Shown here: positions 18,915 through 50,770 of the stretch, piece after piece
How positions within the stretch are numbered: position 1 is the first letter of the stretch
Layout: the number at the start of each line of letters is the position of its first letter
NCBI GenBank assembly: GCA_963754305.1
Contig: CAVWFR010000034.1
Coordinates: forward strand, 5,452-69,451
DNA length: 64,000 bases
Direction of reading: 5' to 3'
Source of the DNA: an uncultured beta proteobacterium
GTDB taxonomy: Bacteria; Pseudomonadota; Gammaproteobacteria; Burkholderiales; SG8-39
The notes under the pieces: model-generated
Databases searched by the model: none
Seen by the model: only the letters and a program-made list of their open reading frames with translations
Told to the model about the DNA's origin: nothing
Translations under genes and position numbers: made by a program

Positions 18915-18955
18915 CGCGCTTCGGGTCGGCCACCGCCGCGTCGTAGCGCCCGTCG

Positions 18956-20741: not shown

Positions 20742-20754
20742 GGCCGCGAGGGTC

Positions 20755-31771: not shown

Positions 31772-31791
31772 CGCGGGCCGACGGTCCAGCG

Positions 31792-32802: not shown

Positions 32803-32890
32803 TCGAACGCGAGAACCGATGTCGAAGGCAGCGCCTTTCCCGACTTCGGGGAGCACCAGGGGATGTGGCCCCTCGTGTCGTGACTAAGCC

Positions 32891-36347: not shown

Positions 36348-36354
36348 GGCGCGT

Positions 36355-37311
36355 ATGAGTTTCTCATGGTCCGGCGCCGCCGCACAGCTCACCGAGCTGG
36401 TGCTCGCGATACTCCTCGCGCCGCTCCTCCTCGGGTGGGTGAACCAGTGCCGCGCCTGGCTGCAGAACAAGAGCGGACCCGGAGTGCTGCGGCCGTACCT
36501 CGTGCTGCGCAAGCTCGTCGCCAAGGACGCGATCGTCGCGCACGGCGCATCCCCGCTCTTTCGTGTCGTGCCGTACGTGCTCTTCGGTGCGATGTGCATG
36601 GCGGCGGCGATCGTGCCGACGCTCGGCACCGACCTCCCCTACGCGCCGGCGGCGGACGCGATCGCGCTGGTCGGCATCCTCGCGCTCGCGCGGGTCGCGC
36701 TCGCGCTCGCCGCGATGGACATCGGCACCGCGTTCGGCTCGCTCGGCGCGCGGCGCGAGATGATGGTCGGCTTCCTCGCCGAGCCGGCGCTGCTGATTGT
36801 GCTCTTCACCGCCTCCCTCATCAGCCAGACGACCTCGCTCGCGACCACGGTCGAGACGCTCTCGCACCGCGAGCTCGCGATCTACCCGAGCCTCGCCTTC
36901 GCCGGCGTCGCGTTCACCATGGTGTCGCTCGCCGAGAACGCGCGCATCCCGGTCGACAACCCGGCGACGCACCTCGAGCTGACGATGATCCACGAGGCGA
37001 TGATCCTCGAGTACTCCGGGCGCCATCTCGCGCTCGTCGAGTGGGCCGCGAGCCTCAAGCTCTTCGTCTACTCCTGCATCGGCATCGCGCTCTTCTTCCC
37101 GTTCGGCATCGCCGAGGGCGGCGATGCTACGGGGATGCTGCTCGCGCTGCCCGCGCTCGTCCTCAAGCTCGCCATCGGCGGATTCCTGCTGGCGCTGATC
37201 GAAACGCTGTCGGCGAAGATGCGCATCTTCCGTGCCCCGGAGTTCCTCGGCACCGCGTTCATGCTCGCGGTGCTCGCGCTGCTGCTGCACACTTTTCTGG
37301 AGACCTCGTGA
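36355..37311 (+). CDS. module 1: HyfC/HycD/NuoH-like membrane subunit
   Basis: 318 aa. It has the hallmark ENARIPVDNPATHLELTMIHEAMILEYSGR. Confidence 0.85.
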   Translation: MSFSWSGAAAQLTELVLAILLAPLLLGWVNQCRAWLQNKSGPGVLRPYLVLRKLVAKDAIVAHGASPLFRVVPYVLFGAMCMAAAIVPTLGTDLPYAPAADAIALVGILALARVALALAAMDIGTAFGSLGARREMMVGFLAEPALLIVLFTASLISQTTSLATTVETLSHRELAIYPSLAFAGVAFTMVSLAENARIPVDNPATHLELTMIHEAMILEYSGRHLALVEWAASLKLFVYSCIGIALFFPFGIAEGGDATGMLLALPALVLKLAIGGFLLALIETLSAKMRIFRAPEFLGTAFMLAVLALLLHTFLETS

Positions 37312-37982
37312 CCGAGCTCCCCACGCCGGCCCTCATCGGTCAGATCATCAACGTCTTTGCGGCAGCGCTGCTGCTCGTCTCGTTCGCGATGCTCGGCCAG
37401 CGCCGGATCCTCTCGCTGATCGACCTCTTCGCCGCGCAGGGGGTCGTGCTGTGCCTCTCGACCGCGTTCGTCGCCTGGGCGACCGGGCAGACGCACCTGT
37501 ACTGGTCGGCCGGGCTGACGCTCGTCCTCAAGGTGCTCCTGCTGCCGTGGATCCTGCACCGGCTCATCCGCCGGCTCAACGTCAAGTGGGACGTCGAGAC
37601 GCTGATCAATATTCCGACCACCATGCTCGTCGGCCTCGTGCTCGTGATCCTCGCGTTCAACCTCGCGCAGCCGGTGTCCGAGCTCGCCGGCACGGTGACG
37701 CGGGGCACGCTGGGGATAGCGCTCGCGACGGTGCTGCTCGCGTTCCTGATGATGATCACCCGCTCGAAGGCGGTGCCGCAGGTGATCGGGTTCCTCGCGA
37801 TGGAGAACAGCCTCTTCTTCGCCGCCACCGCGGCCACCTACGGCATGCCGATGGTGGTCGAGCTGGGGATCGCGCTCGACGTGCTGGTCGGGGTCATCAT
37901 CCTCGGTGTGTTCTTCTTCCAGATCCGGGAGCGGTTCGACTCGCTCGACATCCACCATCTCGAGAAACTGAAAGAGGAATGA
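37308..37982 (+). CDS. module 1: HyfE-like small membrane subunit
   Basis: GTG start with a GTGA overlap onto the upstream stop. 224 aa. The C-terminal block VIGFLAMENSLFF..ELGIALDVLVGVIILGVFFFQI parallels E. coli HyfE. Confidence 0.8.
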   Translation: MTELPTPALIGQIINVFAAALLLVSFAMLGQRRILSLIDLFAAQGVVLCLSTAFVAWATGQTHLYWSAGLTLVLKVLLLPWILHRLIRRLNVKWDVETLINIPTTMLVGLVLVILAFNLAQPVSELAGTVTRGTLGIALATVLLAFLMMITRSKAVPQVIGFLAMENSLFFAATAATYGMPMVVELGIALDVLVGVIILGVFFFQIRERFDSLDIHHLEKLKEE

Positions 37983-38034
37983 AGCCCTCATGTAACCATC
38001 GGGGCGCGGGGTCTGCGCCTCGAGCTCTTGAGCC

Positions 38035-39501
38035 ATGAACCTCGAGATCCTCTTCGTCCTCGGCATCCCGCTCGCGGGCGCGGGCCTGCTCGCGCTCGTC
38101 GGCCACATGCGCTGGGCGGCGGAGGTGAACGTGGCGCTCTCCACGGCGACGTTCGCCGGAGCGACGGGCCTCACCGCCAGCGTCGTCCGCGCCGGCCCGA
38201 TCCTCGCTTTCCAGGAACAGTTCTTCGTCGACTCGCTGAACGTGTTCCTGGTTGCGCTCACCGCGTTCGTCGCGATGACGACCGCGATGTTCTCGCGGCC
38301 GTACATGCGCATCGAGGAGGACCACGGGCGCCTCAGCGCCGCACGGCTGCGCCTCTACCACAGCATGTACCAGCTGTTCATCTTCACGATGCTGCTCGCG
38401 CTCCTCACGAACAACATGGGCATCGTGTGGGTTGCGCTGGAGGCGGCCACGCTGGCGACGGTGCTGCTCGTCAGCCTCTACCGCACGCCGGCGAGCCTGG
38501 AGGCGGCATGGAAGTACTTCATCCTGTGCGGCGTCGGCATCGCGCAGGCGCTCTTCGGCACGATCCTGCTCTACATGGCCTCGCAGAGGATCCTCGGCAG
38601 CGGCATCGAGGCGCTGCTCTGGACGCATCTCGCGGGCGTCCGCTCGCAACTCGAGCCGACGGTGCTGTCGATCGCGTTCGTGTTCCTGCTCGTCGGCTAC
38701 GGCACGAAGGTCGGGCTGGTGCCGCTGCATAACTGGCTGCCCGACGCGCACGCCGAAGGCCCGACGCCGGTGTCGGCGGTGCTCTCGGGGTTGCTCCTCA
38801 ACGTCGCGCTCTACGCGCTCGTCCGCTGCAAGGTGCTCGCCGACGGCGCGCTCGGCACGCCGTACGCCGGTCAGCTGATGATGGGCTTCGGCATCGCCTC
38901 AGTCCTGGTCGCGGCGTTCTTCCTCTCGCGCCAGCGCGACATCAAGCGTCTCTTCGCCTACTCCTCGATCGAGCACATGGGCCTCGTCACCTTCGCGTTC
39001 GGCATGGGCGGCCCGGTCGCGAGCTTCGCGGGGCTCCTGCACATGACGGTGCACTCGCTCACCAAGAGCGCGATCTTCTTCGCCGTCGGCCACGCGGTGC
39101 AGAAGTCGGGCACCCAGGTCATCGAGGACATCCGCGGCCTGATACGGGTGAGCCCGACCATCGGCTGGGGGCTGATGATCGGCACGCTCGCGATCCTCGG
39201 GCTGCCGCCGTTCGGCGTGTTCGCGAGCGAGTTCCTGATCCTCACCACCGCGATGCGCCAGCAGCCGTGGGCCACGCCCTGCCTGCTGCTCGCCCTCGGC
39301 GTCGCGTTCGCCGCGGTGTTCAGGAAGATCCAGCCGATGGTGTTCGGCGACCCCGGCGAGAAGTTCGCCCCGATCAGCCTCCCGTACCCGCCGGCGCTGC
39401 TGCCGGTGTTCACGCACTACGCGCTGGTGCTGGTGCTCGGGGTCTATGTGCCGCCTTACCTCGCCGACTGGTATCGCGAGGCGGCAAAGCTGATCGGGTG
39501 A
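38035..39501 (+). CDS. module 1: HyfF/NuoN(M)-like antiporter-type membrane subunit
   Basis: 488 aa. It has the WLPDAHAEGPTPVSAVLSGLLLNV motif and the FAYSSIEHMG block. Confidence 0.85.
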   Translation: MNLEILFVLGIPLAGAGLLALVGHMRWAAEVNVALSTATFAGATGLTASVVRAGPILAFQEQFFVDSLNVFLVALTAFVAMTTAMFSRPYMRIEEDHGRLSAARLRLYHSMYQLFIFTMLLALLTNNMGIVWVALEAATLATVLLVSLYRTPASLEAAWKYFILCGVGIAQALFGTILLYMASQRILGSGIEALLWTHLAGVRSQLEPTVLSIAFVFLLVGYGTKVGLVPLHNWLPDAHAEGPTPVSAVLSGLLLNVALYALVRCKVLADGALGTPYAGQLMMGFGIASVLVAAFFLSRQRDIKRLFAYSSIEHMGLVTFAFGMGGPVASFAGLLHMTVHSLTKSAIFFAVGHAVQKSGTQVIEDIRGLIRVSPTIGWGLMIGTLAILGLPPFGVFASEFLILTTAMRQQPWATPCLLLALGVAFAAVFRKIQPMVFGDPGEKFAPISLPYPPALLPVFTHYALVLVLGVYVPPYLADWYREAAKLIG

Positions 39502-39514
39502 CCGACGATGAGTC

Positions 39515-41086
39515 TTGAGTGACGGGAAAAGCATGAGTCCCCCGAGCGCGTTCGAGTCGCTCCACCTCCAGGCCACGCCGCTCCGCGCGGCGATGCCGGC
39601 CTGGTACGCGCGCGCGGGCGTCCAGCGGTTGCGCGAGATCGCGATCGGCGTCGCCGCAAAAGCCGGGCGGCTCGCCGCGCTGTGGGGCGCGGACGAACGC
39701 GACCGCGGCGAGGGGTTCGCGCTGCACCTCGCCCTGGTGGTGGACGACGCGACGCTCTGGCTCGCCGTGCCGCTGCCCGCCGAGCGGCCGGAGTACCCGG
39801 ACCTGGGCGACGTCTTCGCCGGCGCGAGCCGCATGCAGCGCGCCGTGTACGACCTCCTCGGCCTCCGCTCGACCGCGGCCGACCAGCGTCCCTGGCTGCG
39901 CCATGCCGCCTGGCCCGCGGACGTCTACCCGCTGCGGCGCGACTTCGGGCTCGAGAACTGGTTCGGCAACGACGTCGAGCAGTACCCCTTCGTGCCGGTC
40001 GCCGGCGCGGGGGTGCACGAGATTCCGGTCGGGCCGGTGCACGCGGGGACGATCGAGCCGGGGCACTTCCGGTTCTCGGTCGTCGGCGAGAAAGTGCTGC
40101 GGCTCGAGGAGCGCCTCGGCTACGCTCACAAAGCGGTCGACAAGCTGTTCGAGCGTCGCGATCTCGTCGGGGGCAGCACGCTCGCGGGGCGCATCTCCGG
40201 CGACAGCACGGTCGCGTACACCTGGGCGTACGCGATGGCCGTCGAGGGGCTCGCCGGCGTCGCGCCGCCGCCGCGCGCGCTGTGGCTGCGCGCGCTCGCG
40301 CTCGAGCGCGAGCGCGTCGCCAACCACCTCGGCGACCTCGGCTATCTCGGCAACGACGGCGGGCTCGCGTTCGGCCTCGCCCAGTTCATGCGCCTCAAGG
40401 AAGAGTGGCTGCGGCTGAACGCCGCGCTCTTCGGCCACCGCTATCTCATGGATTTCGTGGTCCCGGGCGGCGTCGAGCGCAACATCGGCCGGCACGGCTG
40501 CGACGAGGTCGCCGCGCAGTGCGTCGGACTCGCGCTCGAAGTGCAGACGCTGCGCGACATCTACGACGACCACGCCGGGCTGCAGGACCGCTTCCTCACC
40601 TGCGGCCGCCTCGCCCCGGAGCTCGCGCGGCAGCTCGGCGTGGTCGGCCTCGCGGCACGCGCGAGCGGCCTCGCTCTCGACGCGCGCGTCGCGCCCGGGT
40701 TCGAGCCATACGACCGCCTCGAGGTCGCTATGAAGACGCACGGCGCGGGCGACGTGGCCGCGCGCGTCGCGGTGCGGTTCGACGAGATCTTCGAGTCGCT
40801 GCGGCTCCTGCAGGCGATCGTCGAGGGCATGCCGCTCGGCGAGATCAGCACCCCCTTCACCAGCGTCGGCGCTCGCGGGCGCGGCCTGGGCCGGGCCGAG
40901 GGCTGGCGCGGGGAGGTAGTGATCGCGCTCGAGGCAGAAGACGGCACGATCCGTCGCTGTCACGCGCACGACCCGTCGTGGCAGAACTGGCCGGCCCTCG
41001 AGCACGCGGTGATCGGGAACATCGTCCCCGACTTCCCGCTGATCAACAAGTCGTTCAACCTGTCGTACAGCGGACACGATCTCTGA
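39515..41086 (+). CDS. module 1: NuoC-NuoD fusion / HyfG-HycE-like large subunit lacking NiFe-ligand cysteines
   Basis: 523 aa, TTG start (alternative ATG at 39533). It contains VGPVHAGTIEPGHFRF. The position of the RxCGxCxxxH motif reads RISGDSTVAY. The C-terminus reads NLSYSGHDL where HycE has DPCxxCxxR. Confidence 0.85.
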   Translation: MSDGKSMSPPSAFESLHLQATPLRAAMPAWYARAGVQRLREIAIGVAAKAGRLAALWGADERDRGEGFALHLALVVDDATLWLAVPLPAERPEYPDLGDVFAGASRMQRAVYDLLGLRSTAADQRPWLRHAAWPADVYPLRRDFGLENWFGNDVEQYPFVPVAGAGVHEIPVGPVHAGTIEPGHFRFSVVGEKVLRLEERLGYAHKAVDKLFERRDLVGGSTLAGRISGDSTVAYTWAYAMAVEGLAGVAPPPRALWLRALALERERVANHLGDLGYLGNDGGLAFGLAQFMRLKEEWLRLNAALFGHRYLMDFVVPGGVERNIGRHGCDEVAAQCVGLALEVQTLRDIYDDHAGLQDRFLTCGRLAPELARQLGVVGLAARASGLALDARVAPGFEPYDRLEVAMKTHGAGDVAARVAVRFDEIFESLRLLQAIVEGMPLGEISTPFTSVGARGRGLGRAEGWRGEVVIALEAEDGTIRRCHAHDPSWQNWPALEHAVIGNIVPDFPLINKSFNLSYSGHDL

Positions 41087-41087
41087 C

Positions 41088-41606
41088 ATGCTGAAGCTCC
41101 TCAGGCAGATCGCGGTAACGGGCATCGTGACCGAGCCGGCGCCGCGGCCCGACCCCGCGCTGCGGCTCGTCGAGCAGCGGCTGAAGAGCGAGGTGCTCGA
41201 ACTCTTCGGCGGCGCGCTCGCGATCCGCCACGTCGACGCCGGCTCGTGCAACGGCTGCGAGCTCGAGATCCACATGCTGACGACGCCGCACTACAACCTT
41301 GAGGGGCTCGGCGTGCGGTTCGTCGCGAGCCCGCGCCACGCCGACATGCTGCTCGTGACCGGCCCAGTGTCGCGCAACATGGAGACGGCGCTCCGGCGCA
41401 CCTACGACGCGGTCCCCGACCCGAAGCTCGTCGTCGCGGTCGGCGACTGCGGGTGCTCGGGCGGCGTGTTCGGCGAAAGCTACGCGAGCTGCGGCCGGGT
41501 GTCGAACGTGATTCCGGTCGACATCACCGTCCCCGGCTGCCCGCCGACGCCCGCCGCGCTGATGCAGGGCATCTTCACCGCAATCACCGGCCGGGCACGC
41601 GGCTAG
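41088..41606 (+). CDS. module 1: NuoB/HycG/HyfI-like small subunit ([4Fe-4S] ligands retained)
   Basis: 172 aa. Motifs seen: DAGSCNGCELE, SPRHADMLLVTGP, GDCGCSGG and PGCPP. Confidence 0.88.
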   Translation: MLKLLRQIAVTGIVTEPAPRPDPALRLVEQRLKSEVLELFGGALAIRHVDAGSCNGCELEIHMLTTPHYNLEGLGVRFVASPRHADMLLVTGPVSRNMETALRRTYDAVPDPKLVVAVGDCGCSGGVFGESYASCGRVSNVIPVDITVPGCPPTPAALMQGIFTAITGRARG

Positions 41607-41627
41607 CGGGGAACGAGTAGGCACGCC

Positions 41628-43637
41628 ATGGCGCTGGAAGGGCTCTTGTGGTGCATCGCGACCCTGCTCGGCACGAGCGTGGCGGCGGTCGCGGTCGCAC
41701 GCCAGCGCGCGGCGACCGCGCTCGTCTACGGGATTGCCCTAGCCGTTACGGGGATCGCGCTGGTCATCGCGGTGTGGTCACTCCTGACCCCGGGGTCGCC
41801 TAGCGGGCTGAATCTTCCGGTCGGGCTGCCCTGGCTGGGCGCCCACTTCCGGCTCGACGCCCTGACCGCGTTTTTTCTCGTGGTCGTCAATCTGGGCGGC
41901 GCGACGGCAAGCCTGTACGGCCTCGGGTACGGCAAGCACGAAGAGACGCCGGCGCGCGTCCTGCCCTTCTTTCCGACATTCCTGGCGGGGATGAACCTCG
42001 TCGTACTCGCCGACGACGCCTTCACGTTCCTGTTCACGTGGGAGTTCATGTCCCTCGCCTCCTGGGCGCTGGTGATGGCGCACCATCGCCGGCCCGGCAA
42101 CGCCGCGGCAGGCTACATCTATCTGCTCATGGCGAGTCTGGGGACGCTCGCGCTGCTGCTCGCGTTCGGTCTGCTCGCCGGCTCGACCGGCGGCTATGCC
42201 TTCGCCGCCATTCGCACCGGGGCGCCGTCGCCCGGCGTGTCCGGGGTCGTGCTCGCGCTGGCGCTGATCGGCGCTGGCTCCAAAGCGGGCCTGGTGCCGC
42301 TGCACGTGTGGCTGCCGCTCGCCCATCCGGCCGCTCCGAGCCACGTTTCGGCCCTGATGAGCGGCGTCATGACGAAGGTGGCGGTCTACGGCTTCGTGCG
42401 CATCGTGTTCGACCTGCTCGGTCCGCCGAGCTGGTGGTGGGGCGCGCTGGTGCCGCTCCTGGGCGGCGTGACGGCGGTCATGGGGGTGCTCTATGCGCTC
42501 ATGGAGCACGATCTCAAGCGCCTGCTCGCGTATCACACGGTGGAGAACATCGGCATCATCTTCATCGGGCTCGGGCTCGCGCTCGCTTTCCAGGCGAGCG
42601 AGATGCACGCCGCAGCCGCACTCGCGCTCACCGCGGCGCTCTTCCACGTCTTCAATCACTCGGTGTTCAAGAGCCTGCTCTTCTACGGCGCGGGGGCGGT
42701 CCTCACGGCCACCGGCGAGCGCAACATGGAGCACCTCGGCGGGCTCGTCCACCGGATGCCGCTCACGGCCTTCGCCTTCCTCGTGGGCTCCGCGGCGATC
42801 TCCGCGCTGCCGCCGTTCAACGGCTTCGTGTCCGAGTGGCTCACTTTCCAGGCGATCCTCCTGAGCCCCGGGCTGCCGCAGTGGCTGCTCAAGTTCCTCG
42901 TCCCCGCGATCGGCGCGATGCTCGCGCTGTCGGCAGCGCTCGCGGCCGCCTGCTTCGTCAAGGCCTTCGGCATCACATTCCTCGGACGGCCGCGCTCGCA
43001 GGTCGCACGGGACGCAGCCGAAACCGATGCGCTGTCCCTGGCGGCGATGTTCGCGCTCGCCGGGCTGTGCCTGCTGGCGGGGATCCTGCCGGGCTACTTC
43101 ATTGACGCGCTGGCGCCCGTCACCCAGATGCTGGTGGGTGCGAATCTGCCGCGGCAGGAGGAGCTGAGCTGGCTCACGATCGTTCCCATCGCGGAGAGCC
43201 GCAGCTCCTATAACGGCCTGATCCTGTTCGCGTTCATCGCGATGTCGGCCTGGCTGGCGACCTATGTCATTCACCGCTGGGCATCGGCCGCGACGCGCCG
43301 ATCCGCGCCGTGGGATTGCGGGTTTCCCGATGCCAGCCCGGTCACCCAGTACACCGCCGGCAGCTTCACGCAGCCGATCCGCCGGGTGTTCGGGACCGTG
43401 CTGTTCCGCGCACGCGAAGAAGTCCATATCCCCCTTCCCGGAGACCTCCGCGCCGCACGGTTTCACGTGCAGCTGCGCGATGTGCTGTGGGATGTCTTCT
43501 ACACGCCGACGGCGAACCTAGTGAACTTCGCCGCCGACAATCTCAACAAGGTGCAGTTCCTGACGATTCGCGCGTACCTGACCCTGGTGTTCGGCGCGCT
43601 CGTCGTGCTGCTCACGATCCTCGCGGTATGGAACTGA
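41628..43637 (+). CDS. module 2: HyfB/NuoL-like antiporter-type membrane subunit
   Basis: 669 aa, collinear with 34344..36347 (WLPLAHPAAPSHVSALMSGV). It starts 21 bp after the module 1 small subunit. Confidence 0.85.
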   Translation: MALEGLLWCIATLLGTSVAAVAVARQRAATALVYGIALAVTGIALVIAVWSLLTPGSPSGLNLPVGLPWLGAHFRLDALTAFFLVVVNLGGATASLYGLGYGKHEETPARVLPFFPTFLAGMNLVVLADDAFTFLFTWEFMSLASWALVMAHHRRPGNAAAGYIYLLMASLGTLALLLAFGLLAGSTGGYAFAAIRTGAPSPGVSGVVLALALIGAGSKAGLVPLHVWLPLAHPAAPSHVSALMSGVMTKVAVYGFVRIVFDLLGPPSWWWGALVPLLGGVTAVMGVLYALMEHDLKRLLAYHTVENIGIIFIGLGLALAFQASEMHAAAALALTAALFHVFNHSVFKSLLFYGAGAVLTATGERNMEHLGGLVHRMPLTAFAFLVGSAAISALPPFNGFVSEWLTFQAILLSPGLPQWLLKFLVPAIGAMLALSAALAAACFVKAFGITFLGRPRSQVARDAAETDALSLAAMFALAGLCLLAGILPGYFIDALAPVTQMLVGANLPRQEELSWLTIVPIAESRSSYNGLILFAFIAMSAWLATYVIHRWASAATRRSAPWDCGFPDASPVTQYTAGSFTQPIRRVFGTVLFRAREEVHIPLPGDLRAARFHVQLRDVLWDVFYTPTANLVNFAADNLNKVQFLTIRAYLTLVFGALVVLLTILAVWN

Positions 43638-44584
43638 TCCTCGATCTCCTCGTTCAGCTCGGCGAGGTCGCGCTCGTGCTGGCGCTCGCGCCGCTCCTCG
43701 CCGGCTACGTACGCAAGGTCAAGGCCCGCCTGCTTCGCCGGCAGGGACCGCCCGTCGTCCAGCCGTACCGCGATCTCGCGCGACTGATCCGCAAGGAGGT
43801 CGTGCTGGCGGACAACGCCTCCTGGGTGTTCCGCGCCACGCCTTACCTCGTCTTCGCCACGACCTGGGTGGCCGCAGCACTGGTGCCGACCTTCGCGTCG
43901 GGGCTGGTGGTGAGTTACGCCGCCGACATGATCGCCATCGTGGCGCTGCTCGGCAGCGCGCGCTTCATGCTCGCGCTGGCGGGGCTCGACGTCGGCACGA
44001 GCTTCGGCGGGATCGGTTCGAGCCGCGAGATGATGATCGCCTCGCTCGCCGAGCCGGCGATGCTGATGGTCGTGTTCACGCTGTCGCTGCTGGCCGGCTC
44101 CACGCAGCTGTCGTCGATCGCGGCATTCATGCAGGGCCCGCAGGTCGGCCTGCGGGTGTCGCTCGCACTGGCGCTGGTCGGGCTCGTCATGGTCGCCATC
44201 GCCGAGAATGCGCGGATCCCGGTCGACAACCCGGCGACCCATCTCGAGCTGACGATGGTGCACGAAGCCATGATCCTCGAGTACTCCGGTCGCCACCTGG
44301 CGTTGATCGAAGCGGCCTCATTCCTGAAGCTGCTCCTTTACCTGTCCGTCGTCGCCTGCGTTTTCATTCCCTGGGGGGTCGCGGTGTCCGGGGAGGGTTT
44401 CGCCGCCTATCTCATCGGGATCGCGACATACGTCGCGAAACTCCTCGCCGCGGGGTTCCTGCTCGCCGTGTTCGAGACCGCGATCGCGAAGATGCGCGTC
44501 TTCCGCGTCCCCGAGTTCCTGGGGGCGGCATTGATGCTCGGCCTGCTCGCAGCGCTGCTCCTCTTCGTGTCACGGGTCACGTGA
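43628..44584 (+). CDS. module 2: HyfC/HycD/NuoH-like membrane subunit
   Basis: Starts MELILDLLVQLGEV. It has ENARIPVDNPATHLELTMVHEAMILEYSGR and overlaps the upstream gene by 10 nt. Confidence 0.85.
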   Translation: MELILDLLVQLGEVALVLALAPLLAGYVRKVKARLLRRQGPPVVQPYRDLARLIRKEVVLADNASWVFRATPYLVFATTWVAAALVPTFASGLVVSYAADMIAIVALLGSARFMLALAGLDVGTSFGGIGSSREMMIASLAEPAMLMVVFTLSLLAGSTQLSSIAAFMQGPQVGLRVSLALALVGLVMVAIAENARIPVDNPATHLELTMVHEAMILEYSGRHLALIEAASFLKLLLYLSVVACVFIPWGVAVSGEGFAAYLIGIATYVAKLLAAGFLLAVFETAIAKMRVFRVPEFLGAALMLGLLAALLLFVSRVT

Positions 44585-45246
44585 TGGATCGCCTCGCGCT
44601 GGACGTTGCACATCTCTTCGCCGGCGGGCTGGTCCTGGTGAGCTTCATGCTGCTCTACCAGGACCGCATGTTCTCGCTGCTGAACATATTCGCCCTGCAT
44701 GCGCTGGTCGTCTCGCTTTCGGTCGCGTGGCAGGCGTACATCCAGCAGGCGCCCCATCTCTACATCACCGCCGGGATCGCGCTCGTCGTCAAGGCGCTCG
44801 TGATCCCCGTGGTGCTCCATCGCATCATCGTGCGGCTCGGGATCCATCGAAGCATCGAGCAGGTGGTCGGCATCGGACAGACGATGCTCGCGGGGATCGG
44901 GCTGGTCGCGCTGTCCATCATGGTCATGCTGCCGATCACGGCCGAGGCCGGAACGCTCGCCCGGGAAGACCTGGCGTTCGCGCTGTCGGTCATCCTGCTC
45001 GGCCTGCTGATGATGGTCTCCCGGCGCAACGCCCTGAGCCAGGTGATCGGCTTCATGTCGATCGAGAACGGGCTGATCCTCGCCGCCACCGGCGCCAAGG
45101 GGATGCCGCTCGTCGTGGAGATCAGCGTCGCGTTCTCGATCCTCGTCGCCCTCATCGTGATCGGCATCTTCCTGTTCCGCATCCGCGAGCGGTTCGACAC
45201 CATCGACGTTCACGCCCTCGACCAGGTCCGCGGGGAGCGCCCGTGA
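44581..45246 (+). CDS. module 2: HyfE-like small membrane subunit
   Basis: 221 aa. It has the block VIGFMSIENGLILAATGAKGMPLVVEISVAFSILVALIVIGIFLFRI and a 4-nt overlap with the upstream stop. Confidence 0.8.
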   Translation: MMDRLALDVAHLFAGGLVLVSFMLLYQDRMFSLLNIFALHALVVSLSVAWQAYIQQAPHLYITAGIALVVKALVIPVVLHRIIVRLGIHRSIEQVVGIGQTMLAGIGLVALSIMVMLPITAEAGTLAREDLAFALSVILLGLLMMVSRRNALSQVIGFMSIENGLILAATGAKGMPLVVEISVAFSILVALIVIGIFLFRIRERFDTIDVHALDQVRGERP

Positions 45247-46691
45247 CCGAGCCGGGCACGGTTCTCGTCGGCGCCATCCTGACCATCCCCGCACTGAGCG
45301 CGGTGCTGCTCGCCGTGCTGCCCGATGACCGGACGGCCGGACGCCTCAACGTCCTGGCGACGTCGCTGACCCTTCTCTCGGCGGCCGGGCTCTTCATCGA
45401 GCGTCCGTCTCCGGGGCCGTTCCTGATCGTGGACGACCTCAACGTCGTGTTCATCGTGCTGAACACCTTCGTCGGGTTCACGACCAGCGTGTTCAGCGCC
45501 AGTTACATCGCGCACGAGCTCGAGACGGGGCGGCTTTCCCCGGCTTATCTGCGCTTCTACCACGCGATGTACCAGACGCTCATGTTCGCAATGAACCTGG
45601 CGCTGCTGTCCAACAACGTGGGGCTGATGTGGGTCGCGGTCGAGCTCGCGACGCTGACGACGGTGCTGATGGTCGGGATCTACCGCACGCCGGCGGCGCT
45701 CGAGGCGGCGTGGAAGTACTTCCTGCTCGGCAGCGTCGGCATCGCGCTCGCCCTGTTCGGAACAATCCTGGTCTACCTCGCGGCGCGCTCGGTGGTCGGC
45801 GAAGGGCTGGATGCGATGGCCTGGAACGTGCTCGTGGAGCGGGCCCCCGCGTTCGATCCGGCGATTCTCAACCTCGCGTTCGTGTTCCTCCTGCTCGGCT
45901 ACGGGACAAAGGTCGGGCTCGTGCCGCTGCACGCGTGGCTGCCCGATGCGCACGCGGAGGGGCCGACGCCGATCTCGGCCGTGCTGTCGGGCCTGCTGCT
46001 GAACGTCGCGCTCTTCGCGGTGCTGCGCTTCAAGACCATCATGTCGGCGAACCCCGGCGCGCTGGCGCCCGGGCCGCTGATGGTATCGCTCGGATTGCTC
46101 TCGGTGGTGTTTGCGTCGTTCATGCTGTACCGCCGCCACGACATCAAGCGCATGTTCGCGTACTCGTCGATCGAGCACATGGGGATCATCACGTTCGCGT
46201 TCGGCATGGGCGGTCCGCTGGCGAACTTCGCCGGCCTGCTGCACATGACCCTGCACAGCCTCACCAAATCGGCCATCTTCTTCTGCGTGGGCCACATCTC
46301 GCAGATCAAGGGAACGCAGCAGATGTCCGAGATCCGCGGGCTCACGGTGTCCCACCCCGTGCTCGGCTGGGGCCTCGCGCTCGGCGTTGTCGCCATCGTC
46401 GGTCTTCCGCCCATGGGGATCTTCATGAGCGAGTTCCTGATCGTGACTTCCACTTTCGCGCGCGCGCCGGTGCTCGCCGTGGTGCTGGGCTTGAGCCTGC
46501 TCGTGGCGCTGGGCGCGCTCCTCGCGCGCCTGAACGGACTCGCGTTCGGCGCTCCGCACGGGACCGACGCGCCGTCGCAGGCTTCGTTCGTGCCGGTGTT
46601 CGCCCACCTCGCCCTCGTTCTCGCGGCCGGCATATGGCTTCCGCCCGCGGTCGTGGCGTGGTTCCAGCACGTCGCGAGCATGTTGAGCTGA
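45243..46691 (+). CDS. module 2: HyfF/NuoN(M)-like antiporter-type membrane subunit
   Basis: GTG start overlapping the upstream stop. 482 aa. It has WLPDAHAEGPTPISAVLSGLLLNV and FAYSSIEHMG. Confidence 0.85.
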   Translation: MTEPGTVLVGAILTIPALSAVLLAVLPDDRTAGRLNVLATSLTLLSAAGLFIERPSPGPFLIVDDLNVVFIVLNTFVGFTTSVFSASYIAHELETGRLSPAYLRFYHAMYQTLMFAMNLALLSNNVGLMWVAVELATLTTVLMVGIYRTPAALEAAWKYFLLGSVGIALALFGTILVYLAARSVVGEGLDAMAWNVLVERAPAFDPAILNLAFVFLLLGYGTKVGLVPLHAWLPDAHAEGPTPISAVLSGLLLNVALFAVLRFKTIMSANPGALAPGPLMVSLGLLSVVFASFMLYRRHDIKRMFAYSSIEHMGIITFAFGMGGPLANFAGLLHMTLHSLTKSAIFFCVGHISQIKGTQQMSEIRGLTVSHPVLGWGLALGVVAIVGLPPMGIFMSEFLIVTSTFARAPVLAVVLGLSLLVALGALLARLNGLAFGAPHGTDAPSQASFVPVFAHLALVLAAGIWLPPAVVAWFQHVASMLS

Positions 46692-46696
46692 CCGGA

Positions 46697-48214
46697 ATGA
46701 GAACGCTCGGCGAAACCATTCGTGCCGGTCAGCTGGTCGAGGAACATCGGCCTTGGCCGCGCGTGGTCCTGAGCCGCGAGCGCTGGCAGGAGGCGGCGCA
46801 TCGCCTGCAGTCCGGCGAATGGGCGTTGCTCGGGCTCTGGGGCGAGCGCGAGCTCGTGCACATGGCCGTGATCGAGGGCGAGACGACCGAGTGCGGCGTT
46901 CTCAGCCTGGCGTGCGAGGGAAATCGGTTCCCGTCGGTCGGCCGGTCGCATCCGCCGGCCATTCGCCCGGAGCGGGCCCTGCGCGACCTCGTGGGGTTGG
47001 AGCCCGAGGGTCTCCCGGACACGCGAACGTGGCTCGACCACGGCAAGTGGAACCTCCGACATCCGCTCGGCGCTCGCGACGCTGCCGCCGCGCCGGAAGC
47101 CTATCGGTTCCTGCCGGCGGAAGGCGAGAGCCTGCACCAGATCCCGGTCGGTCCGGTGCACGCCGGGATCATCGAGCCCGGCCACTTCCGCTTCGCGGCG
47201 AGCGGCGAGACCATCGTGCGCCTCGAGGAGCGGCTCGGGTACGTGCACAAGGGAATCGAATCGCTCATGGCCGGTGCTTCCATCGCGCGGGCGGCAGTGC
47301 TGGCCGGGCGCGTCTCCGGCGACAGCACGGTCGCCGGCAGCCTGGCCTTCGCCCGGGCGGTCGAGACGGCGATCGGGGTGGAGGTTCCGCCACGGGCGGC
47401 ATGGCTGCGCGCGCTGATGGCCGAGCTCGAGCGGCTCGCGAATCACTTCGGCGACATCGGCGCCATCTGCAACGACGCGGCGTTCGCGATGATGCATGCG
47501 CAGTGCGGGCTCCTCCGCGAGCACGTGCTGCGGACGGCGGCCGCCTGTTTCGGCCACCGGCTCATGATGGACTGCGTGATTCCCGGCGGGATCCGGTCCG
47601 ACCTGCCGGGCGACGGCGAGCGACGGGTGCTCGCGCTCGTCGCGCTCGTGCGCGGGAGTTTTCCGGAGCTCGTCGAGCTGTACGACAATACCGCGTCGCT
47701 CCAGGACCGCACCGTCGGCACGGGAATCCTCGCGCCGGCGCTCGCCAGGCAGTTTGCGGCTGGCGGCTACGTCGGCCGCGCGTCGGGGCGCGACTTCGAT
47801 GCGCGACGCACGCCGGGCTATGCGCCGTACCACGAGCTGCGGTTCGACGTGCCGGTCCTCGAAGAGGGCGACGTGAATGCGCGCGTCTGGATCCGCATCC
47901 GCGAGGTCGAGCAGAGCCTGGCGCTGCTCGGCGAGATCCTCCGCCGGCTCCCGTCGGGATCGATTTTCGCCCCGCCGCCGACGCCTGCAGCCGCCGGCGC
48001 CCGCGAGGGCGTGGCGCTGGTCGAGGGTTTTCGCGGCGACGTCCTCGCGTGGGTGCGGATCGGCGGCGACGGCAACGTCGAGCGTTGCCACATCCGCGAC
48101 CCGTCGTGGTTCCAGTGGCCGCTGCTCGAGGCGGCGGTCGAAGGCAACATCGTCGCCGATTTCCCGCTCTGCAATAAGTCCTTCAACTGCTCGTATGCGG
48201 GCCACGACCTCTAG
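46697..48214 (+). CDS. module 2: NuoC-NuoD fusion / HyfG-HycE-like large subunit lacking NiFe-ligand cysteines
   Basis: Starts MRTLGETIRAG, 505 aa. It contains VGPVHAGIIEPGHFRF. The N-terminal motif position reads RVSGDSTVAG and the C-terminus reads NCSYAGHDL. Confidence 0.85.
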   Translation: MRTLGETIRAGQLVEEHRPWPRVVLSRERWQEAAHRLQSGEWALLGLWGERELVHMAVIEGETTECGVLSLACEGNRFPSVGRSHPPAIRPERALRDLVGLEPEGLPDTRTWLDHGKWNLRHPLGARDAAAAPEAYRFLPAEGESLHQIPVGPVHAGIIEPGHFRFAASGETIVRLEERLGYVHKGIESLMAGASIARAAVLAGRVSGDSTVAGSLAFARAVETAIGVEVPPRAAWLRALMAELERLANHFGDIGAICNDAAFAMMHAQCGLLREHVLRTAAACFGHRLMMDCVIPGGIRSDLPGDGERRVLALVALVRGSFPELVELYDNTASLQDRTVGTGILAPALARQFAAGGYVGRASGRDFDARRTPGYAPYHELRFDVPVLEEGDVNARVWIRIREVEQSLALLGEILRRLPSGSIFAPPPTPAAAGAREGVALVEGFRGDVLAWVRIGGDGNVERCHIRDPSWFQWPLLEAAVEGNIVADFPLCNKSFNCSYAGHDL

Positions 48215-48225
48215 GGTGAGCGACG

Positions 48226-48771
48226 ATGCGTAGATTGCTGTTGAAGAGTCTTGTGCACGGGCCGCTGACGGAGGCCGCGCCCGCCAGCGACGAGGCCGCA
48301 GTCGCGGAGCTGGCGGCGCGCGTGAATCAGGTCTCGCGCAAGCGGCTGGGGCGCACGCTAGCCATCCGCGAGGTCGACGCGGGATCCTGCAACGGCTGCG
48401 AGCTCGAGATCCATGCGCTCAACAACGTCCTCTATGACCTGGAGCGATTCGGTCTGCGCTTCGTGGCTTCTCCGCGCCATGCCGACGTGTTGCTGGTGAC
48501 CGGTCCGGTCACGACGAACATGCGCGAAGCGCTCGAACGCACCTACCGGGCGACGCCCGGTCCGAAGTGGGTGGTGGCAGTGGGAGACTGTGCGCGCGAC
48601 GGCGGGGTATTCGCCGGTAGCTATGCCTGCGTCGGCGGCGTCTCGGACGTCATCCCGGTCGACCTCCACGTCCGCGGGTGTCCCCCGTCCCCGATCGTCC
48701 TGCTCAGGGGACTGCTCGCGCTGCTCGAGAGCGTAGCGGCCGATGTGCCACCGAGCGGCAACGAAGTCTGA
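48226..48771 (+). CDS. module 2: NuoB/HycG/HyfI-like small subunit ([4Fe-4S] ligands retained)
   Basis: 181 aa. Motifs seen: DAGSCNGCELE, SPRHADVLLVTGP, GDCARDGG and RGCPP. Confidence 0.88.
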   Translation: MRRLLLKSLVHGPLTEAAPASDEAAVAELAARVNQVSRKRLGRTLAIREVDAGSCNGCELEIHALNNVLYDLERFGLRFVASPRHADVLLVTGPVTTNMREALERTYRATPGPKWVVAVGDCARDGGVFAGSYACVGGVSDVIPVDLHVRGCPPSPIVLLRGLLALLESVAADVPPSGNEV

Positions 48772-48785: not shown

Positions 48786-49229
48786 ATGGCCCTGGAGCTC
48801 CCGCTGCCGTTCATCGGCTGGTTCTTCACAATGGGGAGCGTACTCGCGCTCGCGGTCGGCGCGATGCTGATCATCGCGCTGCACCGAGGCGACGAGCGCT
48901 CGCGCGGCGTCCTGGCACGGACGGCGTGGAACGACATGGCGCTCTTCGGGATCTGGTTCCTCGGCCTCGCCGGCGGCATCGGCGTGCTGCAGCTCCGGCC
49001 GTGGGGGCGGCATCTGCTCGAGTTCTTCTGCTGGACGCTGATGGCGCTCGTGTTGCTGTCCGCGGCGACACGGCTCCAGGCGTACAAGCGGCTGCCGGCG
49101 GAGGAGCGCGTGAGCTGGATCGGCGCGATCTCGGGCGTCGCGCTGGTGCTGATCCCGGTGCTGGCGATCTGCGGCGCGACCATCGTCACCTTGCGGAGCG
49201 AAGGGACGCGTGCGGCGTTTGGCGGCTAG
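48786..49229 (+). CDS. hypothetical 4-TM membrane protein, last gene of the apparent operon
   Basis: Starts MALELPLPFIGWFFTMGSVLALAVGAMLIIAL. 147 aa with four hydrophobic helices. It begins 14 bp after the module 2 small subunit. No family was recognised. Confidence 0.55.
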   Translation: MALELPLPFIGWFFTMGSVLALAVGAMLIIALHRGDERSRGVLARTAWNDMALFGIWFLGLAGGIGVLQLRPWGRHLLEFFCWTLMALVLLSAATRLQAYKRLPAEERVSWIGAISGVALVLIPVLAICGATIVTLRSEGTRAAFGG

Positions 49230-49243
49230 CCGGGCCCGTTCGG

Positions 49244-49660
49244 CTACGGCTTGATGTACGCGTAGCCCTCTTTCTGCTGGAGCTGCGCGATCCGGGCCAC
49301 CCCTGAGGGCACATACTGCACCTCGGGGATGAACTGGTTCTCCTCGAGCTTGCGGTTGCGCAACGTGATGCGGCAGACCTCGAAGCTCACGCCTTGAGCC
49401 TTCAGGTCCTCGACGATCACGCTGTACGGGTTCTTGTTGGGATCTTGCGCGCCGTTCATCAGGAAATCCACGCCTTCGGCGTGGGCGACGACGACGATCT
49501 TTGCCTTCGGATCCACCTCGAGGTGGTTACGGACGTTGCGCAGGCCCTTGGTCGCCTGCGCAAGGCCGGCGTCGAAGTGGTAGATCACCTTGTCCTGCGC
49601 GGCGGCGACGCCGACAACCGCGAGCGCGGCAACGGCGGCGAGCATCTCGAGCATTCTCAT
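49244..49660 (-). CDS. DsrE/DsrF-like family protein with signal peptide
   Basis: Starts MRMLEMLAAVAALAVVGVAAAQ. The core VIYHF..IVVVAHAEGVDFL..FEVCRITL is typical of COG1416/DsrE-like proteins. Confidence 0.65.
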   Translation of the reverse strand: MRMLEMLAAVAALAVVGVAAAQDKVIYHFDAGLAQATKGLRNVRNHLEVDPKAKIVVVAHAEGVDFLMNGAQDPNKNPYSVIVEDLKAQGVSFEVCRITLRNRKLEENQFIPEVQYVPSGVARIAQLQQKEGYAYIKP

Positions 49661-49708
49661 GGTCGGGCTCCGATTGACAATTCTGCGCGGCGGCGTCCAA
49701 ATCCGCGG

Positions 49709-49978
49709 GTGGCAAAGCATCTCATCATCTCGGGGCGAGTGCAGGGCGTCGGCTACCGCGCGTCGATGGTCGACGAGGCGCGACGCCTCGGCGTCGGCGG
49801 CTGGGTGCGCAACCGCCGCGACGGCTCCGTCGAAGCAGTGGTGGACGGCGATGCCGCGGCGGTCGCGGCGATCGTCGAGTGGGCGCGGCGCGGGCCGTCG
49901 GGAGCCGGTGTGATGAATGTCGCAGCAGCGGACACCGACGGGACCTTCGACGGCTTCGACTGGCTTCCGACGGCTTGA
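49709..49978 (+). CDS. acyP: acylphosphatase
   Basis: GTG start, 89 aa. It has the ISGRVQGVGYR and GWVRNRRDGSVEAVV signatures. Confidence 0.85.
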   Translation: MAKHLIISGRVQGVGYRASMVDEARRLGVGGWVRNRRDGSVEAVVDGDAAAVAAIVEWARRGPSGAGVMNVAAADTDGTFDGFDWLPTA

Positions 49979-50048
49979 GGGCGCCCCGAGGCGTTTCTCG
50001 TGTAGCCTTCGACTCGATTCGCGTTGAGCCGGTCGTCCGCGCCGGTCA

Positions 50049-50636: not shown

Positions 50637-50770
50637 TCGATGAGATGCTTGCGCCAGCGACAGCGCTCGACCGCCGGTTTGGGCTGCGAGGTCGCCGGCG
50701 ACGCCGATCGGCGCTATGTTAGCGCCACACCGCGCCGTCAGAGTCTTCCCGGCCAGTCAGGCGCGCCCCC

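Follow-up and report, generated by a model that had tools for sequence, protein, structure and literature searches.

Two adjacent six-gene clusters, very probably of the Ehr type, encode hydrogenase-like large subunits devoid of NiFe-ligating cysteines

The 64-kb stretch of DNA analysed here (the window) contains two adjacent six-gene clusters between positions 34344 and 48771, each self-contained and arranged in a hyfB-C-E-F-G-I-like order (modules 1 and 2). Their genes and the motifs of interest are:

34344..36347, + strand, module 1 HyfB-like antiporter-type subunit, NuoL family (Pfam PF00361 and PF00662; gene call from locus L001)
36355..37311, + strand, module 1 HyfC/HycD/NuoH-like membrane anchor (Pfam PF00146)
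37308..37982, + strand, module 1 HyfE-like small membrane subunit (NCBIfam 'hydrogenase 4 membrane subunit', E = 2.7e-26; L001 gene call)
38035..39501, + strand, module 1 HyfF-like antiporter-type subunit, NuoM/N family (Pfam PF00361; key Glu/Lys retained)
39533..41086, + strand, module 1 large subunit, a NuoC-NuoD/HycE-like fusion of 517 aa without NiFe cysteines (Pfam PF00329 and PF00346; HycE match)
40190..40219, + strand, RISGDSTVAY replacing RxCGxCxxxH in module 1 (read directly and in alignments)
41057..41083 (41086 with the stop codon), + strand, NLSYSGHDL replacing DPCxxCxxR in module 1 (read directly and in alignments)
41088..41606, + strand, module 1 NuoB/HycG-like small subunit with four [4Fe-4S] cysteines (Pfam PF01058; alignment with NuoB, HycG and HyfI)
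41628..43637, + strand, module 2 HyfB-like subunit (Pfam PF00361; key residues retained; loop 1 motif PWDCGF)
43628..44584, + strand, module 2 HyfC/NuoH-like membrane anchor (Pfam PF00146; L001 gene call; alignment)
44581..45246, + strand, module 2 HyfE-like subunit (weak Pfam PF00420; synteny with HyfE-like genes in 80 loci)
45243..46691, + strand, module 2 HyfF-like antiporter-type subunit (Pfam PF00361; key residues retained)
46697..48214, + strand, module 2 large subunit of 505 aa without NiFe cysteines (about 44% identity to module 1; alignment)
47309..47338, + strand, RVSGDSTVAG replacing RxCGxCxxxH in module 2 (read directly and in alignment)
48185..48211 (48214 with the stop codon), + strand, NCSYAGHDL replacing DPCxxCxxR in module 2 (read directly and in alignment)
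48226..48771, + strand, module 2 NuoB/HycG-like small subunit with four [4Fe-4S] cysteines (Pfam PF01058 on the corresponding L001 gene, 18693-19238)

The reading frames are intact in all twelve genes, and the module 2 HyfB-like gene starts 21 nt past the stop codon of the module 1 small-subunit gene. The region apparently encodes two complete Ehr-type complexes, of two anciently diverged subtypes, in one transcription unit. The start codons of the large-subunit genes are at 39533 and 46697, which are not the starts of the long ORFs; position 48214 is the end of the module 2 stop codon, and the module 2 product matches protein P0128 (505 aa) at 100% identity. The module 1 HyfB-like and HyfF-like proteins score above the NCBIfam cut-offs for 'hydrogenase 4 subunit B' (897 bits) and 'hydrogenase 4 subunit F' (865 bits), respectively, and the module 2 small subunit matches an NCBIfam NuoB subfamily (129.8 bits). 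The C-terminus of the module 1 HyfB-like protein, alignable to HyfB, HycC and NuoA, carries a PWDCGF loop 1 motif within a two-helix extension. In the module 1 membrane anchor the loop between TM5 and TM6, ENARIPVDNPATHLELTMIHEAMILEYSG, is remodelled compared to HycD and NuoH. No formate dehydrogenase, hyp or hydrogenase-protease genes are present within the window, and a NuoI/HycF-type ferredoxin subunit is absent from either module. A DsrE-family gene lies downstream of the modules on the opposite strand.

The original prediction held that the two large subunits had lost the NiFe-ligating cysteines alike within well-conserved surroundings, and the four replacement peptides it had read were indeed located exactly as listed above. 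A phmmer alignment with E. coli HycE (7z0s_E; E = 3e-58), the best solved-structure match of the module 1 large subunit by sequence, placed RISGDS opposite RVCGIC and NLSYSG opposite DPCYSC, and MAFFT alignment with HycE, HyfG and NuoCD gave the identical register for both modules. These registers assign S, S, S and G to the four canonical cysteine positions of both proteins, the N-terminal pair being replaced by Ser/Ser and the C-terminal pair by Ser/Gly; module 2 has a cysteine one residue ahead of the lost C-terminal ligand. Judged from these alignments, neither protein would be able to ligate a NiFe centre via the canonical cysteines, in agreement with the prediction. The flanking blocks (VGPVHAG-IEPGHFRF, LEERLGY-HK and GNIV-DFPL-NKSF) are strongly conserved, the segments around the former active site being those of highest conservation, and the end of the module 1 large subunit coincides with that of mature HycE. 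HycE is also the best PDB match (TM 0.84) of an AF2 model of this protein (pTM 0.86), in which pLDDT falls below 50 precisely in the beta1-beta2 loop and the C-terminal motif, so that the model gives no pocket geometry. The large subunits derive from group 4 [NiFe]-hydrogenase catalytic subunits, and the cysteine-bearing proteins nearest to them resemble group 4f.

The same replacements recur among the homologues. Nearly all of 247 proteins with at least 63% identity carry R[IV]SGDSTVA[YF] and KSFN[LC]SY[SA]G-DL, and about 240 close homologues have no cysteine at any of the four ligand positions. When 107 motif-complete representatives of 50%-identity clusters were scored, none of these positions was cysteine in 81, one in 5, and three or four in 21, the commonest residues at the lost sites being R-x-S-G-D-[ST] and N-x-S-Y-x-G-x-D-L; such a recurrence far exceeds what chance would produce. 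A relative of the large subunit is encoded in at least 590 species genomes, and the same six-gene module was found in nearly all of those loci, among the 80 fetched, whose length suffices to show one. Conservation across these homologues indicates that both large subunits are under strong constraint, as had been proposed. No conserved redox partner was detected in the module flanks among the 80 loci. The hosts are mostly respiring aerobes, many of them acid-tolerant or acidophilic, and many oxidise sulfur or iron. In a third cysteine-less subtype (loci L028 and L029) the NuoB-like subunit is fused to a 2x[4Fe-4S] domain, which argues for electron handling in the wider group. An unusual F0F1 ATPase operon adjoins the module in two loci (L088 and L059).

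The loss had further been suggested to predate a duplication that gave rise to the two copies. Its age was borne out, since no three- or four-cysteine protein falls beneath the common ancestor of the module 1 and module 2 proteins in 100/100 bootstrap NJ trees: the replacement predates the split of both subtypes. A local duplication, in contrast, was not supported. Each large subunit clusters with its own orthologues in 100/100 bootstrap trees and the two are exclusive sisters in 0/100, while orthologues at 60-66% identity occur in other classes; examples are those of the module 1 protein in Gallionella and of the module 2 protein in Rhizobium johnstonii pRL11 and Azospirillum. Given these closer orthologues in other taxa and the mutual identity of only about 44%, the modules are best read from their sequences as ancient paralogous module types set side by side. 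Support for a single clade of all cysteine-less proteins is weak (25-41/100 bootstraps).

Although real, the cysteine loss belongs to an already published class, and its novelty had been overestimated. The lack of NiFe cysteines is exactly what defines Ehr (PMC6349859, PMC10284858, PMC10432482), an energy-converting hydrogenase-related class without an assigned function (PMC6349859, PMC10284858, PMC10432482, PMC8691401), and we are confident that both modules are NiFe-free, ancient and conserved complexes of this type. Ehr complexes, exemplified by Geobacter sulfurreducens GSU0739-0745 (EhrA-D, EhrL, EhrS) and reported from Nitrospira, Margulisbacteria and ammonia-oxidising archaea, contain the same kinds of subunits (NuoB-like small, NuoH-like anchor, HyfE-like and NuoL/M/N-like), whereas here two distinct subtypes stand in tandem in an uncultured Burkholderiales-like bacterium. 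The hyfBCEFGI cluster of Acidithiobacillus ferrooxidans (DN052_15040-15065) has the identical six-gene order, and its catalytic subunit was already classified as a non-hydrogenase by HydDB (PMC7735108); it differs in being a single module from another host, published without a residue-level description. The large subunit of an Acidithiobacillus locus (L052) is 52% identical to that of module 1. A Methylocystis cluster, ehfA-F, is induced at pH 5 (log2FC +4.2 to +4.5) without detectable H2 (10.1101/2025.08.29.672306). The motifs quoted for it (...ANGExVVRL...AARVS) fit the module 2 type, cf. ANGETVVRL and GRTSGDS in pRL11, and by these few motifs the cluster is a probable member of the family.

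Among canonical enzymes, E. coli Hyd-3/Hyd-4 match the six subunits one-to-one (HycE/HyfG, HycG/HyfI, HycC/HyfB, HycD/HyfC, HyfE and HyfF) and share the small-subunit CxxC and the antiporter residues, with HycE as the best structural match. Unlike them, the modules lack HycB, HycF/HyfH, FdhF and HycI/Hyp maturation, and their large subunits have neither the C-terminal extension nor the NiFe cysteines of HycE; their anchor has a remodelled TM5-6 loop. The nearest four-cysteine relatives, the group 4f [NiFe]-hydrogenases (putative 'Ehf'; R-x-C-G-x-C...S-H and KSF[EN]LCY-C-D), have in common with the modules the beta1-beta2 loop and a C-terminus without a cleavable extension. However, they retain the NiFe ligands and have Val/Ala at the position of Ehr Asp224, Ser at that of Asp480 and mostly Glu (15/21) at that of Asn509.

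In the small subunit, each of the four [4Fe-4S] cysteines is preserved in 73-74 of 74 loci, spaced as in the full-length, hydrogenase-type CxxC motif and unlike complex I with its tandem CC; the module 1 protein has two additional cysteines. The HyfB-like and HyfF-like subunits retain the Glu/Lys residues of proton translocation (TM5 Glu, TM7 Lys, TM8 Lys, TM12 Glu), and the membrane part appears to retain three coupling loops, of which loops 1 and 3 are present in the alignment. Retained features of the large subunit include the beta1-beta2 loop Glu of the proton relay, the E-x-x-R-G Arg and the terminal Asp; Glu175, Arg459, Glu456 and Asp516 are conserved in cysteine-less and four-cysteine relatives alike. 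The pocket residues are polar, and its charge has shifted: Glu509 is replaced by Asn, and Asp224 and Asp480 are gained beside the retained Arg459. Asp224, present in 70 of the 81 cysteine-less representatives, is a derived residue that replaces the hydrophobic residue at the gas-channel end of the CGxC motif, Val/Ala in most three- and four-cysteine proteins.

Taken together, we slightly favour the view that these Ehr-type complexes are not hydrogenases and yet remain redox-linked ion translocators. Each comprises a HyfB-like, a HyfF-like and a HyfE-like subunit, a NuoH/HycD-like anchor, a NuoC-NuoD-like large and a NuoB-like small subunit. To our knowledge, all characterised relatives use a NuoI/HycF-type subunit to supply the proximal cluster with electrons; here the single [4Fe-4S] cluster may exchange electrons with a partner encoded outside the operon, for example a soluble carrier of the ferredoxin or flavodoxin type or a membrane acceptor in the chamber between large subunit, small subunit and anchor. 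The polar Ser/Asp/Ser-Thr pocket, supplied by the retained Glu relay, would gain or lose protons beside the cluster, and its protonation might power, or be powered by, the passage of protons through HyfB and HyfF. This redox-coupled pump mechanism is put forward tentatively, at somewhat below even chances. The physiological role is most likely pH/ion homeostasis or redox balancing in aerobes. P. furiosus MBS and complex I are precedents in which the NiFe site was lost while the proximal cluster and ion pumping were kept (PMC7684303, PMC8165549).

The main competitor, unlikely but to be taken seriously, is that the complexes are redox-free Mrp-like cation/proton antiporters or uniporters for pH/ion homeostasis, in which the peripheral arm serves as a structural cap or as a regulator that senses redox state or O2, and the Ser/Asp pocket as a structural plug. 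The [4Fe-4S] cluster could be purely structural or regulatory, and the conserved Asp could merely form a salt bridge with the retained Arg, filling the space vacated by the cofactor, which would explain Asp conservation without new chemistry. The intact antiporter residues, the operon without an electron-input subunit, flanks without a conserved redox partner and the pocket charge moved near Arg459 agree with such a role, as do the F0F1 ATPase operon beside the module in L088 and L059, the numerous acid-tolerant or acidophilic hosts and the acid induction of the probable Methylocystis member without H2 (10.1101/2025.08.29.672306). However, known Mrp antiporters do not need a peripheral arm (PMC7684303), all four [4Fe-4S] cysteines persist in 73-74 of 74 loci, the relay Glu and the E-x-x-R-G Arg are as strictly conserved as in the four-cysteine relatives, and a related cysteine-less subtype carries the fused 2x[4Fe-4S] domain.

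Neither functional analogy of the original prediction found support. Minimal complex I-like quinone reductases, with a NuoD/Nqo4-like quinone-reduction site in the former NiFe pocket, are improbable: NuoD-family homology (Pfam PF00346; NCBIfam NuoD matches below the cut-offs), a NuoH-like anchor and mostly respiring aerobic hosts would suit them, but Gly is aligned with NuoCD Tyr273 (Nqo4 Tyr87), the beta1-beta2 loop is hydrogenase-type (IEPGHFRF) with a hydrophobic residue opposite the quinone His (Nqo4 His38), the pocket residues are polar instead of hydrophobic, the anchor TM5-6 loop is unlike that of NuoH, and both the tandem CC of the small subunit and a NuoI-like subunit are missing. Still less probable is a sulfane-sulfur (polysulfide) reductase of the archaeal MBS kind, in which the proximal [4Fe-4S] cluster would be the catalytic site. 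MBS likewise lost the NiFe site and retained the proximal cluster (PMC7684303), there is a downstream DsrE-family gene, and sulfur or iron oxidation occurs in many hosts; however, the MBS cluster has three cysteines because its motif is shortened (PMC7684303), whereas four cysteines in a full-length hydrogenase-type CxxC motif are found here. Furthermore, MbsL has no relay Glu but still two NiFe cysteines out of four, as opposed to none of four with the Glu present, the MBS chamber is hydrophobic rather than polar, MbsN/NuoI-like and extra Mrp-type subunits are absent, and the DsrE gene runs on the opposite strand, with DsrE matches next to the module seen in only a few related loci (L001, L007 and L086). 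Hydrogenases with an unconventional metal site, or alternatively decaying pseudo-enzymes, are hardly credible, even though the overall fold and second-sphere active-site residues are retained and a Cys and a His near the lost C-terminal ligands are conserved in module 2. Against a hydrogenase stand the complete lack of ligand cysteines in about 240 close homologues, the missing maturation genes in the window and the undetected H2 of the probable Methylocystis member (10.1101/2025.08.29.672306), while decay is excluded by strong conservation over at least 590 species and the intact frames of all twelve genes.

Twelve genes on the + strand (34344-48771) were assigned from gene calls and from Pfam and NCBIfam matches to two consecutive six-gene modules, each in the order HyfB-like, HyfC/NuoH-like, HyfE-like, HyfF-like, large subunit (a NuoC-NuoD/HycE-like fusion) and small subunit (NuoB/HycG-like). 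Module 2 (M2) starts 21 nt past the stop codon of the small subunit gene of module 1 (M1), and the two modules are therefore probably co-transcribed.

34344-41606, + strand, M1
36355-37311, + strand, M1 membrane anchor
39533-41086, + strand, M1 large subunit (517 aa)
41088-41606, + strand, M1 small subunit
41628-48771, + strand, M2
43628-44584, + strand, M2 membrane anchor
45243-46691, + strand, M2 HyfF-like subunit, one intact ORF
46697-48214, + strand, M2 large subunit (505 aa)

The module proteins are 100% identical to those on an independent ENA metagenome contig (L001), as are the corresponding JGI proteins, which rules out a sequencing or frameshift artefact. L001 (15711-17158) has two overlapping gene calls in place of the M2 HyfF-like gene, suggesting a frameshift in the ENA copy. 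The nearest named relatives are MAGs of Burkholderiales and other Betaproteobacteria.

The original prediction stated that both large subunits had lost the NiFe-binding cysteines. Its four peptides were found exactly where it had placed them, and the loss was confirmed by aligning them with phmmer to E. coli HycE (7z0s_E, E = 3e-58) and by MAFFT alignment with HycE, HyfG and NuoCD, which agreed on the register. The N-terminal motif RVCGIC(GFAH) of HycE aligns with RISGDS(TVAY) in M1 and RVSGDS(TVAG) in M2, and the C-terminal motif DPCYSCTDR aligns with NLSYSGHDL and NCSYAGHDL, respectively, so that the four ligand positions are Ser, Ser, Ser and Gly in both proteins. Both also stop at the last residue of mature HycE. 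Neither protein matches RxCGxCxxxH or DPCxxCxx[HR], the motifs for membership of the group 4 [NiFe] hydrogenases, as both metal-ligating cysteines of each are absent; the group 4 fold and second-sphere residues, such as the relay Glu175 and the Arg459 of E-x-x-R-G, are present and conserved (E = 3e-58, TM 0.84 versus 7z0s_E). The complexes are unable to ligate NiFe in the canonical way.

The motifs R[IV]SGDSTVA[YF] and KSFN[LC]SY[SA]G-DL occur in nearly all of 247 homologues with at least 63% identity, and the M2-type protein on Rhizobium johnstonii pRL11 reads RTSGDSTVAY and NKSFNCSYSGHDL. Among the top 150 hits of a profile search over 1.84 billion cluster representatives, 107 were motif-complete and were counted: 81 carry no cysteine at the four ligand positions, five carry the first only, and 21 carry three or four, the last reading R-x-C-G-x-C...S-H and KSF[EN]LCY-C-D. 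The signature is specific to this protein group.

Around the lost ligands, the β1-β2 loop VGPVHAG-IEPGHFRF is near-invariant, including the Glu equivalent to MbhL Glu21, and this Glu, the E-x-x-R-G Arg and the terminal Asp are conserved as strictly as in the cysteine-bearing relatives. Three other positions differ between the two groups.

Residues at three large-subunit positions in cysteine-less proteins and in three-/four-cysteine relatives
Position 224 (the x of CGxC): Asp in 70/81 cysteine-less proteins; mostly Val or Ala in the relatives
Position 480: Asp in cysteine-less proteins; Ser in the relatives
Position 509: Asn in cysteine-less proteins; mostly Glu (15/21) in the relatives

Position 224 is the gas-channel gate residue of standard [NiFe] hydrogenases (Val74 in D. 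fructosovorans). An AF2 model of the large subunit confirmed the fold (pTM 0.86), although pLDDT fell below 50 in precisely the two segments that matter here, the β1-β2 loop and the C-terminal motif. HycE is the PDB entry that the model matches best (TM 0.84, 28% identity); no closer solved structure emerged when a PDB copy covering releases up to April 2026 was searched by fold.

The four [4Fe-4S] cysteines of the small subunit are kept in 73-74 of 74 loci, with the full-length, hydrogenase-type C-x-x-C spacing (C-N-G-C). M1-type small subunits have two extra cysteines near these ligands, in GDCGCSGG (51/74 loci) and SYASCG (41/74), and that of M2 has a cysteine one residue earlier, in SYACVG. 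In the membrane part, the antiporter-like subunits keep the TM5 Glu, TM7 Lys, TM8 Lys and TM12 Glu, except that at TM8 the HyfF-like subunits have Asn, as does E. coli HyfF, and the PWDCGF loop is kept at the HyfB C-terminus. The TM5-6 loop of both anchors reads PVDNPATHLELTM-HEAMILEYSG; compared with PFD-AEAEQEL in HycD and NuoH, three residues are inserted and acidic ones are fewer.

The large subunits of M1 and M2 are approximately 44% identical to each other. M1 orthologues (50-62%) were found in Gallionella, Sideroxyarcus, Thiobacillus, Methylibium, Paraburkholderia, Burkholderia, Rhodanobacter, Thiomonas, Acidithiobacillus and Acidobacteriaceae; matches in Nitrospirota were more remote (46-48%). 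M2 orthologues (64-66%) lie on replicons of R. johnstonii 3841 (pRL11), Sinorhizobium fredii, Azospirillum brasilense, Methylovirgula and Bradyrhizobium, and Cupriavidus and Burkholderia replicons were also matched in the M2 search. In neighbour-joining trees rooted on HycE/HyfG (100 bootstrap replicates), each module clusters with its own orthologues in 100/100 replicates, and M1 and M2 are never exclusive sisters (0/100). In all 100 replicates, the clade descending from their common ancestor is free of proteins that have three or four cysteines, and the cysteine loss therefore predates the M1-M2 divergence, as the original prediction had held. Its wording of a duplication stands as an ancient split into two module types but not as a local event; a recent tandem duplication is contradicted by the low identity and the failure to pair as sisters. 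A single origin of all cysteine-less proteins received weak bootstrap values (25-41/100), and the closest cysteine-bearing relatives, putatively of group 4f, are basal in these trees.

Judged by sequence, the two modules match a published class of complexes named Ehr, for energy-converting hydrogenase-related, and are a new instance of it, not a new kind of system. PMC6349859, PMC10284858 and PMC10432482 describe Ehr as group 4-like complexes whose large subunit is devoid of NiFe-binding cysteines. Both modules encode such a large subunit alongside a NuoB-like small subunit, a NuoH-like anchor and Mrp/NuoL-type subunits (twelve genes, Pfam/NCBIfam), a list comparable to Geobacter EhrA-D/L/S (PMC8691401). 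The same six-gene hyfBCEFGI cluster of Acidithiobacillus ferrooxidans was reported to have a 'non-hydrogenase catalytic subunit' (PMC7735108), and the large subunit of an Acidithiobacillus locus is 52% identical to that of M1.

Of the functional analogies offered with the original prediction, neither was supported, although its account of a lost NiFe ligation older than the split was. Against a quinone site like that of complex I NuoD/Nqo4, the ligand Tyr87 (E. coli NuoCD Tyr273) aligns with Gly223, the place of the ligand His38 (NuoCD His224) is taken by Ile or Thr within a loop of the hydrogenase type, and the small subunit has C-N-G-C instead of the tandem Cys-Cys that holds cluster N2 in NuoB (PMC8165549); no homologue of NuoI, NuoE, NuoF or NuoG was found in the module cluster. 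A sulfane site like that of MBS fares no better. There, the proximal [4Fe-4S] cluster is held by three cysteines via a shortened motif, and MbsL keeps two of the four NiFe cysteines and has no relay Glu (PMC7684303), whereas the modules have a full-length CxxC with four cysteines, none of the four NiFe cysteines, the relay Glu and a polar pocket. MBS also comprises thirteen subunits, including the NuoI-like MbsN and a full Mrp set, compared to six genes and no ferredoxin-like subunit in each module.

The modules are self-contained and keep the Fe-S site, proton relay, coupling loops and pumping residues, with no ferredoxin-like input subunit. We tentatively favour the reading, possible though short of probable, that the complexes remain redox-linked ion translocators, in which electrons would pass between the single [4Fe-4S] cluster and a partner encoded outside the operon and the polar Ser/Asp pocket beside it would handle protons. 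A redox role is supported by the strictly conserved cluster ligands, by the conserved second-sphere residues and by a sister cysteine-less subtype, referred to here as the third subtype (L028 ~2189-2941; L029 ~3072-3752), in which the NuoB-like subunit carries a fused 2x[4Fe-4S] HyfH/NuoI-like domain at its N-terminus and the large subunit, reading EAIVGDSSIAY and NKSFDLSYCGNDL, likewise has none of the canonical cysteines. As the main alternative, the complexes may be redox-independent, Mrp-like devices for ion or pH homeostasis, with a structural or regulatory cluster and with Asp224 pairing with the retained Arg to fill the cofactor cavity, which we consider unlikely. It is quite unlikely, to our judgement, that the polar pocket itself (Ser222, the derived Asp224, Ser/Thr225 and Ser511 with the Glu175 relay and Arg459), which adjoins the intact four-cysteine proximal [4Fe-4S] cluster, is a new NiFe-free functional site for proton loading (redox-Bohr) or for another cation. 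If it were, Ehr would be acid-inducible redox-driven proton exporters, or generators of low-potential reductant driven by the proton-motive force, in aerobic bacteria, and would represent a third way, besides those of complex I and MBS, in which the catalytic pocket of hydrogenases has been put to new use; modules of different subtypes that recur in tandem might cooperate.

Physiological hints are weak. According to 10.1101/2025.08.29.672306, expression of a Methylocystis 'group 4f' ehfA-F cluster rose 16- to 23-fold at pH 5, and no H2 could be detected; the motifs quoted there match the M2 type. An A. caldus copy adjoins a β-carbonic anhydrase gene (PMC3826726). Many hosts are acid-tolerant. 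In two unrelated loci, the module lies beside an atypical F0F1 ATPase operon with the gene order beta, epsilon, AtpZ/I, subunit I, a, c, which resembles that of the N-type ATPase.

L088 (Methylovirgula pHY1), 1-3240, atypical F0F1 ATPase operon
L059, ~15300-20800, atypical F0F1 ATPase operon

Ehr complexes are widespread: relatives of the large subunit were matched in at least 590 species genomes, with hosts including Rhizobium, Azospirillum, Burkholderia, Cupriavidus, iron and sulfur oxidisers, Nitrospirota and Acidobacteriaceae. Public labels of the homologues are inconsistent and routinely wrong ('NADH-quinone oxidoreductase subunit C', 'nickel-dependent hydrogenase large subunit', 'Ni,Fe-hydrogenase III large subunit', 'hydrogenase 4' and even 'hydrogenase expression protein HypE'), and HydDB-based studies place some members of the family in group 4f of the hydrogenases and others among the non-hydrogenases. 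The function of Ehr, once known, would close a gap in the evolutionary line that leads from hydrogenase via MBS to complex I and would correct genome-based inferences of hydrogen metabolism. The window says nothing fundamentally new on that function; its practical pointers are the derived pocket defined by Asp224, Asp480 and Asn509, the intact Fe-S site and pumping residues, and close orthologues in genetically tractable hosts, e.g. R. johnstonii 3841 pRL11 (RL_RS31230-31255).

Most genomes have one module only. The M1-M2 tandem recurs in a related MAG (L086, 1-12082), with a small XRE-type regulator gene between the modules that is missing in the window (41606-41628), where M2 abuts M1. Counting L086, small XRE-type helix-turn-helix genes lie 5' of M2-type and basal modules in eight loci besides the window, among them those listed here.

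L085, 4596-4892, XRE-type gene
L086, 4638-4919, XRE-type gene
L087, 4611-4859, XRE-type gene
L088, 3611-3856, XRE-type gene

Tandem pairs of differing cysteine-less subtypes recur in unrelated lineages: the third subtype is paired with an M1-type module in Methylibium and Aquabacterium (L028 and L029, 1-11600), and an SGT-type module with an M1-like one in a Nitrospirota MAG (L062, 1-11500). The two subtypes of such pairs may work together or be co-regulated.

No hyp, formate dehydrogenase, carbonic anhydrase or ferredoxin gene was found in the 64-kb window, the remainder of which is housekeeping (dxs, ispA, folE2, thyA, metG, apbC and dnaE). A promoter and terminator scan of 33.5-50 kb gave no signal over shuffled background and was uninformative in this 70% G+C sequence. 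When ORFs lying up to 6 kb from the module were clustered across 80 loci, there was no widely shared neighbour from which a partner could be inferred, the commonest being a response regulator (8), a methyltransferase (8), metG (6) and an SthA-like gene (5). The stretch downstream of M2 (48786-52036) encodes a membrane protein of 147 aa that matches no Pfam family, a DsrE-family protein (- strand), a small acylphosphatase and a cytochrome b561, and dnaE comes next; the ORF at 50771-52036 likewise matches no Pfam family. The order DsrE, acylphosphatase, cytochrome b561, dnaE is also present in L086, several kb farther downstream of the module, and in part in another locus (L007). The window further encodes two Ser/Thr protein kinases (19311-20741 and 31729-34207), one fused to a response-regulator receiver domain and the other directly 5' of M1 beside a PEGA-domain protein; among the other loci, a kinase match adjoins the module in L070 only. 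A 743-aa protein encoded at 58923-61154 (- strand) consists of eight DUF5649 repeats.
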